DNA from: Escherichia coli
GTDB taxonomy: Bacteria; Pseudomonadota; Gammaproteobacteria; Enterobacterales; Enterobacteriaceae
Length of the DNA stretch: 64,000 bases
NCBI RefSeq assembly: GCF_003334305.1
Contig: NZ_QOWS01000003.1
Strand: one strand, 5' to 3'
A program made the translations under genes and the position numbers. This document shows, piece after piece, positions 26,482 through 29,104 of this stretch. Position 1 is the stretch's first letter. The number at the start of each line of letters is the position of its first letter. The notes under the pieces are model-generated. The model was not told the DNA's origin and made no database searches. It was given only the letters and a program-made list of their open reading frames with translations.

Positions 26482-27270
26482 TCATTTCAGCGTACAATCG
26501 CCACATTGCTGCACATCCGGTAAGCGATAACGCTGGCAGCAGGTCCGGCGCACCAGCAGGCCGTCGCGTAGCACCACGGTACGCCAGAGTGGATTATCTT
26601 CACCGGTAGTAAGCGTTTTCTCAAAAAAGAGGGCATGGCGCAGCGATTCAACCGTCGCCTCGCCGAGCAGTTGCTTCATCTCAGTAAGATACCAGTTGAT
26701 CAAATAACCGGTATTACTCCAGATAAGTTTGCCGTTGATCTCTCCGGTCGCTTCTAGTGCCTGCACAACCGGAACCAGCGCCTGGCTGATTAACCTTTCC
26801 ATTCGCTGCTGCGGCGAATGTGGTGTTGCGTTTTTATCTTCACACACATCGACCCAGAAACAGGCGGCACGGCCGGTTTCGTGAAACTCAGCATGGAAAT
26901 GTTCCGGCGACACATCTAATGCCTTTTCCTGCGTCAGTAGCGCCAGCATTAATGGTGGCACCATCAGGCCGATATACCATTGTGCCCATAGTGAGATCAG
27001 CGGTTTGTTCTCGCGGATCATCGTTGGTTGGTTGCGATAGATATGATCGGAATAGACCGCGAGTAGAGAACTTAGCGCATTCGGTGATGACCATTGCGCC
27101 AGCGTCATGGCGTTAAGCGGAGCGGGTTCATCCAGGCGGATAAACTCCAGCAAATGTTCACGATGTTCGGCGATCGTCGCACGTACGGCTTGTGCAAGCC
27201 CAGCATCCTGTGGCTGGAGATGCGTTCGCCAGATAACATCTTCATAGAGCGGTGCGGAACGATAGGCCAT
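26482..27270 (-). CDS. fhuF: Ferric-siderophore reductase FhuF (2Fe-2S)
   Basis: 262 aa; C-terminal cysteine cluster C-C-x10-C-x2-C (…TCCQRYRLPDVQQCGDCTLK). Confidence 0.9.
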   Translation of the reverse strand: MAYRSAPLYEDVIWRTHLQPQDAGLAQAVRATIAEHREHLLEFIRLDEPAPLNAMTLAQWSSPNALSSLLAVYSDHIYRNQPTMIRENKPLISLWAQWYIGLMVPPLMLALLTQEKALDVSPEHFHAEFHETGRAACFWVDVCEDKNATPHSPQQRMERLISQALVPVVQALEATGEINGKLIWSNTGYLINWYLTEMKQLLGEATVESLRHALFFEKTLTTGEDNPLWRTVVLRDGLLVRRTCCQRYRLPDVQQCGDCTLK

Positions 27271-27282
27271 AATCGGGATAGT

Positions 27283-27397
27283 AATCTAAATGATAATGAT
27301 TGCTAATCCTAGCGATAGGTTTACCCGATAGCAAGGGATTTCTCTGGCTTGCAAATGATAAAAATTATCATATGATATTGGTTTTCATTATCAATGA
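27283..27397. promoter_or_regulatory. Putative Fur boxes in the fhuF / yjjZ divergent promoter region
   Basis: aaatgataatgattgc (27283-27298) and aatgataaaaattatcatatgatattggttttcattatc (27354-27393) resemble the gataatgataatcattatc consensus. Confidence 0.6.
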
Positions 27398-27410: not shown

Positions 27411-27647
27411 ATGTTGCAACGTACGCTGGGCAGTGGCTGGGGAGTGTTGCTGCCAGGATTGCTGATTGCAGGGCTGATGTATGCGGATTTATCACCGGAT
27501 CAGTGGCGGATTGTCATTCTGATGGGATTAGTATTGACGTCGGTGATGCTGTATCACAAACAGTTACGGCATTACGTTTTGCTACCATCGTGCCTGGCGC
27601 TTATTGCTGCCATCATGCTGATGATAATGAATTTGAATCAGGGATGA
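27411..27647 (+). CDS. yjjZ: Small membrane protein of unknown function
   Basis: 78 aa from ATG 27411 (MLQRTLGSGWGVLLPGLLIAGLMY…); track ORF starts further upstream at a non-ATG. Confidence 0.65.
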   Translation: MLQRTLGSGWGVLLPGLLIAGLMYADLSPDQWRIVILMGLVLTSVMLYHKQLRHYVLLPSCLALIAAIMLMIMNLNQG

Positions 27648-27685
27648 AAAATCAAGGAAGAAACAAGAAAGGAAGTAAAGATAAT

Positions 27686-27772
27686 TGGTGCGAGGGGGGG
27701 GACTTGAACCCCCACGTCCGTAAGGACACTAACACCTGAAGCTAGCGCGTCTACCAATTCCGCCACCTTCGC
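27686..27772 (-). tRNA. leuQ: tRNA-Leu (anticodon CAG), single copy
   Basis: 87 nt; minus strand reads GCGAAGGTGGCGGAATTGGTAGACGCGCTAGCTTCAGGTGTTAGTGTCCTTACGGACGTGGGGGTTCAAGTCCCCCCCCTCGCACCA. Confidence 0.95.
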
Positions 27773-27813
27773 ATACCATCAATTCTTAAAAAGAATTGCT
27801 ACCACGGAGGCGC

Positions 27814-27841
27814 ATTCTAGTGGTTTTCAGCTTTTCGTCAA
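27814..27841 (-). promoter_or_regulatory. Sigma-70 promoter of the tRNA-Leu gene
   Basis: Minus strand TTGACG (27836-27841), 16-bp spacer, TAGAAT (27814-27819), then GC-rich discriminator gcgcctccg. Confidence 0.7.
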
Positions 27842-27894
27842 TAGTTAATTATCGCCGGAGGTGTAATTGCTGGAAAAATGTCCATCAGGAAACT

Positions 27895-28060
<166 letters not shown>

Positions 28061-28072
28061 TCGGCGGGATAC

Positions 28073-29104
28073 TTAACCTTTCTTCGCCTGGCGGGTCATA
28101 ATGGCGCGATACACCTTGAAGCGCCCGGTTTGCGCGATAACTTCATGGAAGCCAAATGTCTCATCCAGCACGTCCGGGTAAGGCAGGAAGGCGTTCGCTA
28201 CAATTCGCAGCTCGCCGCCGCTATTAAGATGACGCACCGCGCCGCGAATCAGCGTTTGCGCCGCATCCAGGCTGGTTTGCATCCCATCGTGGAACGGCGG
28301 GTTGGAGATGATCATATCAAAACGACCTTTCACCTCGGAAAAGACGTTGCTGGCAAAGACTTCACCTTCAACACAGTTGGCCGCAAGTGTTGCGCGGCTG
28401 GCTTCTACCGCTGGCGCAGAGACATCGCACAAGGTGAGACGAATTTTCGGCGAATGGCGCGCAAAGGCAACTGAAAGCACCCCCGCGCCACAGCCGACAT
28501 CCAGCACTTTACCTTTCGTGTGCGGAGTTAACGTCGAGAGCAGCAACTGGCTACCGACATCCAGACCGTCGCGGCTAAACACGCCAGGCAGCGTTTTGAC
28601 CGTCAGGCCATCGACGCTGTATTCGCCCCAGAATTTATCGGCATCAAATACCGGCTGTTTTTCCAGACGACCAAAATAGAGGCCACAGCGACGAGCGCTG
28701 TCGACTTTATTCAACGGCGCATAATCTGCCAGCATCTGCTCGGCGCTGCGCACGCCGCTGCGGTTCTCGCCAACGACAAAAATATCCGTCCCCACCGGCA
28801 GCAGAGAAAGTAAATTCATCAACTGGAACTGGGCTTCCGGTTTGTTCTTCGGCCAGTAGTAAATCAGCGTATCGCAATCTGCGACGTCATCCGCCGTGGC
28901 GACCAGACTGAAACGGGCGTTATCCCCCATCTGGCGGCTTAATACCTGCCAGTGGTGGAATTGCTGGGTATGAGCACGGCTGGCCGCGGTATCTAAACGC
29001 GCGGGCAGGTCATCCTGTAAGTCTCCGGCAAACAGAATACGGCTTTGTTCGAAATCATCACTGTGACGCAGCAAGACTTCACTTGCCGGGGTAAATGCAG
29101 ACAT
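28073..29104 (-). CDS. rsmC: 16S rRNA (guanine1207-N2)-methyltransferase
   Basis: 343 aa; SAM-binding [12 protein letters not shown] motif and NPPFH catalytic motif. Confidence 0.9.

Follow-up and report, generated by a model that had tools for sequence, protein, structure and literature searches.

The leuQPV operon of Escherichia coli, which in K-12 carries three tandem tRNA-Leu(CAG) genes, has been reduced to a single gene in the 64,000 nucleotides of E. coli DNA analyzed here (hereafter, the window). We are confident that the reduction took place by misalignment between the repeated genes, and that the one-copy state is real and inherited within the lineage; the same loss has arisen recurrently in the species and appears to be fixed in O157:H7. 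This reading draws on the anatomy of the locus, the frequency of the one-copy allele in the population, its occurrence in the closest relatives of the window, its polyphyletic distribution, and the lack of extra copies elsewhere in the genome.

The sole tRNA identified by ARAGORN in the window was a tRNA-Leu of 87 nt with anticodon CAG (27686..27772, minus strand). The Rfam tRNA model RF00005 matched the same gene (27689-27772, minus strand; 48.5 bits, E = 1.4e-8). Together with the flanking ORFs, these searches confirmed the original prediction of one 87-nt tRNA-Leu between yjjZ and rsmC. The gene is transcribed towards yjjZ, its convergent downstream neighbour, which marks the left edge of the locus; rsmC lies upstream of the tRNA and marks the right edge. 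The K-12 leuQPV operon has the same location between these two genes, and the gene order in the window, including holD and rimI, agrees with the K-12 leuQPV locus. The features of the region are the following:

26482-27270, minus strand: fhuF, flanking ORF assigned by synteny with K-12
27411-27647, plus strand: yjjZ (DUF1435, 78 aa), from the sequence and the annotation of K-12 and STW0522-31
27640..27685, minus strand: 3' trailer, from the alignment with K-12 and a terminator scan
27686..27772, minus strand: tRNA-Leu(CAG) gene, 87 nt, from ARAGORN and Rfam RF00005
27773..27813, minus strand: discriminator and leader, from the sequence, invariant in the alignment
27814..27841, minus strand: sigma-70 promoter of the operon, consensus scan 10/12
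27890..28070, no strand assigned: REP/BIME cluster, repeated REP-type sequence with an Rfam naRNA4 match
28073-29104, minus strand: rsmC (16S rRNA m2G1207 methyltransferase, 343 aa), from the ORF list and the annotation of relatives

A strong promoter with the structure TTGACG-16-TAGAAT and a GC-rich discriminator had also been proposed for this gene, and both the consensus scan and the sequence agreed. The -35 hexamer TTGACG (27841-27836, minus strand) is separated by a 16-nt spacer from the -10 hexamer TAGAAT (27819-27814, minus strand), and their score of 10/12 was the joint-highest match in the region. The GC-rich discriminator GCGCCTCC (27813-27806, minus strand) lies directly 3' of the -10. 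We infer from the sequence a transcription start near G27805, which would give a leader of about 33 nt to the 5' end of the mature tRNA. From the -35 hexamer through to the tRNA, the alignment of the window, K-12, STW0522-31 and O157 was invariant. The pre-tRNA leader also contains a perfect 8-bp hairpin (27779-27797, minus strand; CAATTCTT-TTT-AAGAATTG), located just upstream of the RNase P site and invariant in K-12, O157 and the window.

On the other side of the gene, the trailer (CCA-AUUAUC...) is the K-12 leuV trailer: it is C/U-rich and G-poor, has no hairpin, and enters the convergent 3' end of yjjZ. A terminator scan of the window locus found no intrinsic terminator after the tRNA. In K-12, RNase P cuts the single tRNAs out of the operon transcript independently of RNase E. 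Transcription is presumed to stop after leuV at a Rho-dependent terminator that lacks structure, with PNPase and RNase II trimming the downstream sequence (PMC2190699). By analogy, the trailer in the window is presumed to be a zone of Rho-dependent termination, and its leader would be removed by RNase P, as in the K-12 experiments (PMC2190699). Since promoter, leader and trailer are unchanged, the one-copy allele should be transcribed and matured as in K-12. Its transcript would need just a single 5' RNase P cut, whereas the intercistronic RNase P cleavages of the K-12 transcript are not required.

The three tandem copies that the original prediction named for K-12 (leuQ, leuP and leuV) are indeed present at this locus in MG1655, as 87-nt tRNA-Leu(CAG) genes separated by spacers of 28 and 34 nt. 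The two spacers can be recognized by AAAACCACGTTGATATTGCTCGCACTGG and AACGAGGCGATATCAAAAAAAGTAAGATGACTGT, and both are absent from the window. The alignment with K-12 resolves the locus in the window into leuQ promoter plus leader, a single tRNA and, directly after it, the leuV trailer, with no other rearrangement. Exactly 236 bp are missing, corresponding to two tRNA genes and both spacers. Both breakpoints fall within the 87-nt repeat unit, which is as finely as the junction can be placed. The tRNA of the window is 100% identical (87/87) to K-12 leuQ and leuV, both in the alignment and in a comparison copy by copy; it has a C at position 48, not the T typical of leuP, and its run of eight C is intact. 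The two loci share the position between yjjZ and rsmC, and their -35 to -10 core, discriminator, leader, tRNA and 3' trailer are identical; neither has an intrinsic terminator (from our scan for the window, and from the literature for K-12). In contrast to K-12, the window has one tRNA instead of three, and lacks the 28- and 34-nt spacers and the T48 leuP. With one gene and no spacers, the window thus carries a reduced allele of leuQPV, not its canonical form.

T48 was found in leuP, the middle copy, in 6/6 of the intact three-copy loci inspected. Among the extracted loci, T48 was scored in the middle tRNA copy of L001, L014-L016 and L019. In ETEC1739 (L018) T48 is located in copy 1, and copy 2 is truncated and could not be scored. 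The leuP of O111 11128 carries in addition C26T. MJ-T (L007) has two copies with a 28-nt spacer between them, and its second copy follows that spacer yet has C48. Because of this combination, we read the second copy of MJ-T, from its sequence, as a leuP/leuV chimera with a crossover 5' of position 48, or as a product of gene conversion.

Replication slippage, which is RecA-independent, and unequal sister-strand exchange, which is homologous, can both delete the DNA between direct repeats. Misalignment between identical 87-nt repeats would have deleted the 236 bp from a three-gene leuQPV by one of these two routes, both of which fit the sequence; the simplest pairing would be that of leuQ with leuV. 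What remained would be a functional monocistronic unit, in which an intact tRNA gene is expressed from the operon's own strong, stringent-type promoter and leader and is followed by the leuV trailer, which would keep the presumed Rho-dependent terminator. Gain and loss of whole units through misaligned identical repeats is shared with glyVXY, with tRNA arrays in general and with the number of rrn operons, and in these stable-RNA arrays the effect of dosage is likewise dependent on growth rate (PMC4539685; PMC9981150). Unlike in those arrays, the units of leuQPV are set apart by unique spacers, and therefore their loss is not reversible to the original structure.

The one-copy allele is a real, ordinary trait of the lineage of the window. 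The 12 nearest complete genomes over positions 15001-40000 of the window were 99.4-99.6% identical to it; since the nearest was 99.6% identical over these 25 kb, the exact strain is not represented among them. One copy was present in 11 of the 12, and two copies in the remaining one, MJ-T. SMBL, BEC1-S17-ESBL-07, C311 and STW0522-31 have a single tRNA-Leu annotated between yjjZ and rsmC (the STW0522-31 locus being 99.9% identical to the window), PapRG-06-3 and IZSBS22 align to the window over 25 kb in a single piece with no insertion, and PapM-36-2, GF8, GF75, GF161 and KD0845 are also members of the one-copy set. The assemblies of these relatives come from different groups in different countries.

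We then surveyed 5426 complete E. coli genomes with two queries. The spacer query was a concatenation of both K-12 spacers, bordered in each case by 20 nt of tRNA sequence, edges that are too short to score alone. Both spacers, and so three or more copies, were found in 4963 genomes (91.5%), one spacer (two copies) in 36 (0.7%), and neither spacer in 427 (7.9%). Extra spacer places amounted to at most 17 across all genomes, which implies that arrays above three copies are rare. The junction query was the 287-nt leader-tRNA-trailer of the window, with a threshold (E <= 1e-110) unreachable by a half-match. It matched end to end, revealing a contiguous one-copy allele, in 425 genomes (7.8%), in agreement with the 427 from the spacer query. 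That 425/5426 complete genomes share the one-copy architecture supports a real change in copy number, as against the other explanation that had been suggested, a collapse in the assembly. Two other counts were discarded. A 901-bp query contained REP elements and matched 13 places in the median genome; its count of 504 genomes (>=80% coverage) was contaminated, with two-copy genomes included. The 287-nt query at the default E-value returned 509 genomes, which is not a census, as leader and trailer pieces were joined across three-copy arrays.

Identity to the window among the 425 ranged from 95.8% to 100%, with 30 genomes at >=99% and 395 at 95-99%; the 287-nt match was 100% identical in at least 11 genomes. 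In an evenly spaced sample of 60 rows out of the 425, O157:H7-type records made up ~70%, at 98.3% identity, and all of them (40-plus) were one-copy. Outside O157:H7, one copy was present in only ~2% of genomes. O157:H7 (EDL933, Sakai, EC4115 and hundreds of closed genomes) has the same architecture as the window, with leader, one tRNA and leuV trailer, and so do one-copy strains scattered outside O157 (STW0522-31, SMBL, C311, ST648 and others). The 287-nt core was 100% identical to that of the window in STW0522-31, SMBL, PapM-36-2, GF8 and others, versus 98.3% in O157:H7. O157:H7 differs from the window also in flank haplotype and REP content (189 nt between tRNA and rsmC, against 300 in the window), which points to an independent event. 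One of the 425 alleles was located on a record classed as plasmid, probably a mislabelled chromosomal replicon or fragment.

The flanks of the locus place the one-copy allele on several backgrounds. We built a neighbour-joining tree from a flank alignment of 1460 nt, which covered yjjZ, part of fhuF and the 3' portion of rsmC and excluded both the array and the REPs. The loci were chosen for diversity: besides that of the window, they comprised 13 with one copy, one with two copies and seven with three. One-copy alleles were found on at least seven flank haplotypes differing by 1-4.5%, interspersed with three-copy alleles. One-copy and three-copy loci grouped together in the tree as GF130 with clone D i14, 2824 with K-12, and Ec-050-T20 with 07_3986. 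In the haplotype group to which the window itself belongs, SMBL (one copy) and MJ-T (two copies) have identical flanks, and O111:H- 11128 (three copies) differs from them at one site. Dozens of O111 genomes with three copies match, at 100% identity, the 200 nt of flank immediately adjoining the tRNA in the window. Such near-identical flanks with one, two and three copies imply that the loss is recurrent. Judging from these sequences, it would be recent as well and would have occurred in several E. coli backgrounds, and local or very short recombination could move the alleles.

Regarding gene dosage, the tRNA-Leu(CAG) sequence was found at a median of 4 places per complete E. coli genome, with a range from 1 to 10. 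Each of the window's one-copy relatives has 2 places genome-wide, presumably the gene between yjjZ and rsmC and leuT. Compensation by extra tRNA-Leu(CAG) genes elsewhere was considered for these relatives and rejected on this count of 2 places per genome. Published numbers of CTG-Leu tRNA genes are 4 in K-12, 2 in EDL933, 3 in Sakai (McDonald 2015 Table S1, PMC4539685) and 4 in E. fergusonii (PMC4539685 Table S1). The E. fergusonii count is consistent with an ancestral state of three genes at this locus plus one elsewhere. Totals vary among O157:H7 genomes (e.g. NZ_AP018488.1), with 2 in EDL933 and a third copy in some strains, among them Sakai and PV15-279. The sampled O157:H7 records all have one copy between yjjZ and rsmC, so the extra copy of some strains lies elsewhere. 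For Sakai, an additional Pro(CCA) tRNA is listed too (PMC4539685 Table S1), which hints at a duplication of leuT-proM.

One-copy genomes would thus have two tRNA-Leu(CAG) genes, the one at the locus and leuT, rather than four. As a result, less of the most-used tRNA would be supplied, at a modest cost in rich medium and with a neutral or beneficial effect in poor medium. A K-12 strain with leuVPQ deleted is viable. Loss of tRNA redundancy in K-12 has been reported to be beneficial in poor media (PMC9981150), and in a range-expansion experiment larger colonies were associated with indels in individual copies of leuP, leuV, leuQ and leuT (bioRxiv 10.1101/355404). By analogy with the leuVPQ deletion, a similar but weaker effect would be predicted for the natural three-to-one allele, which retains half of the gene dosage.

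These two reports would fit a scenario in which the loss is adaptive, that is, in which a lower dosage of tRNA-Leu(CAG) was repeatedly selected under slow growth or nutrient limitation, instead of reflecting neutral instability of the repeats. Such a scenario would also fit the excess of reductions (425 one-copy and 36 two-copy genomes) over expansions (at most 17 extra spacer places), and the presence of the one-copy allele on at least seven flank haplotypes, with apparent fixation in O157:H7. We nevertheless regard it as unlikely. Deletion between close direct repeats is easy and the unique spacers cannot be regained, so a bias towards deletion is expected also without selection. Moreover, the ~2% of one-copy genomes outside O157:H7, and the 91% of all genomes that keep three copies, argue for purifying selection on the array, and O157:H7, which is strongly overrepresented among the genomes, amounts to a single event. 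Deletion-biased repeat instability accounts for the data equally well as selection does. It is also doubtful that the parallel cut in tRNA dosage in O157:H7 and in the livestock/wastewater-associated clade of the window represents a selected adjustment of translational capacity. If loss were selected, the leuQPV array would be a natural dial for growth strategy.

A single origin of the one-copy allele, spread afterwards by homologous recombination through import of short tracts, is very improbable. E. coli recombines often, and since tRNA and promoter are invariant a very short import would leave no trace; however, the flanks of one-copy alleles begin to diverge a few tens of bases from the tRNA, and between O157 and the window there are already differences in the first 100 nt to either side of the gene (with 287-nt identities to the window of 95.8% to 100%). 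Given this early divergence, a shared import could span ~100-200 bp at most. In addition, each one-copy haplotype clusters with a different three-copy haplotype.

Finally, the near-identical 87-nt repeats of a strain that truly has three or two copies might have been merged during assembly. The repeats are only 115-121 bp apart, the window was produced with a sequencing technology of uncertain type, and genomes with identical immediate flanks have three or two copies; with two copies in MJ-T and three in O111 genomes with identical flanks, a three-copy state here would not be phylogenetically absurd. We consider such a collapse highly unlikely all the same. It would lead one to expect the full array in the closest closed genomes, but 11/12 of them, from independent laboratories, have one copy and 1/12 has two. 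This agrees with one half of the alternative outlined in the original prediction, namely a single copy in further closed genomes of the lineage. The one-copy state is found as well in 425 complete genomes and in all 40-plus O157:H7-type records sampled, and the published counts for EDL933 and Sakai also show a reduced number. The spacers are unique, so a collapse would usually be expected to break the contig or to leave a spacer, not to produce a seamless join of leader, tRNA and trailer within 64 kb of contig, and the whole array is only ~330 bp, which one long read or a large k-mer spans.

The one-copy leu allele is already known, since RefSeq annotation includes it and published tables of tRNA genes show it. 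In the open-access literature we found no paper explicitly describing this polymorphism among strains, and its documentation there is limited to a supplementary table (PMC4539685); a study of deletions of tRNA transcription units (PMC11480407) had nothing specific on leuQPV. The annotation of the strain should read two tRNA-Leu(CAG) genes, not four, and models of codon adaptation or of the tRNA pool based on K-12 counts would overestimate the CUG-decoding capacity that this lineage and O157:H7 have. The census, with ~91% of genomes at three copies, 0.7% at two and 7.8% at one, recurrent loss and no compensating copies, is useful for the study of tRNA redundancy, and O111 11128, MJ-T and SMBL offer natural three-, two- and one-copy alleles on near-identical backgrounds. 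Beyond such bookkeeping, the importance of the finding is small.

A second, independent length polymorphism at the locus is that of the REP/BIME cluster, which separates the leu promoter from the stop codon of rsmC. Inside the cluster, Rfam naRNA4 (nucleoid-associated ncRNA 4) matched at 27912-27994 (plus strand; 70.3 bits). The tRNA and rsmC are 300 nt apart in the window and also in STW0522-31 and C311; this distance is 267 nt in K-12, SMBL, BEC1-S17 and MJ-T, only 189 nt in O157, and ~199 nt in both AVS0223 and GF130.

In some RefSeq assemblies, the C8 run in the T-arm/acceptor of tRNA-Leu(CAG) is replaced by C9 or C7, so that the gene is 88 or 86 nt long. We observed such variants in BEC1-S17-ESBL-07 (L005, 891-978), where the sole tRNA copy at the locus is affected, in PA45B (L017, 1584-1783) and in ETEC1739 (L018, 1699-1784). 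This C run is a documented hotspot of indels (PMC8510543), and the C9 and C7 variants could equally be true indels or homopolymer sequencing errors. In the intergenic region between fhuF and yjjZ (27349-27394), we also noted two promoter-like sequences that overlap and point in opposite directions, TTGCAA-16-TATGAT (plus strand) and TTGATA-16-TATGAT (minus strand), as would fit divergent transcription of fhuF and yjjZ from promoters of their own.
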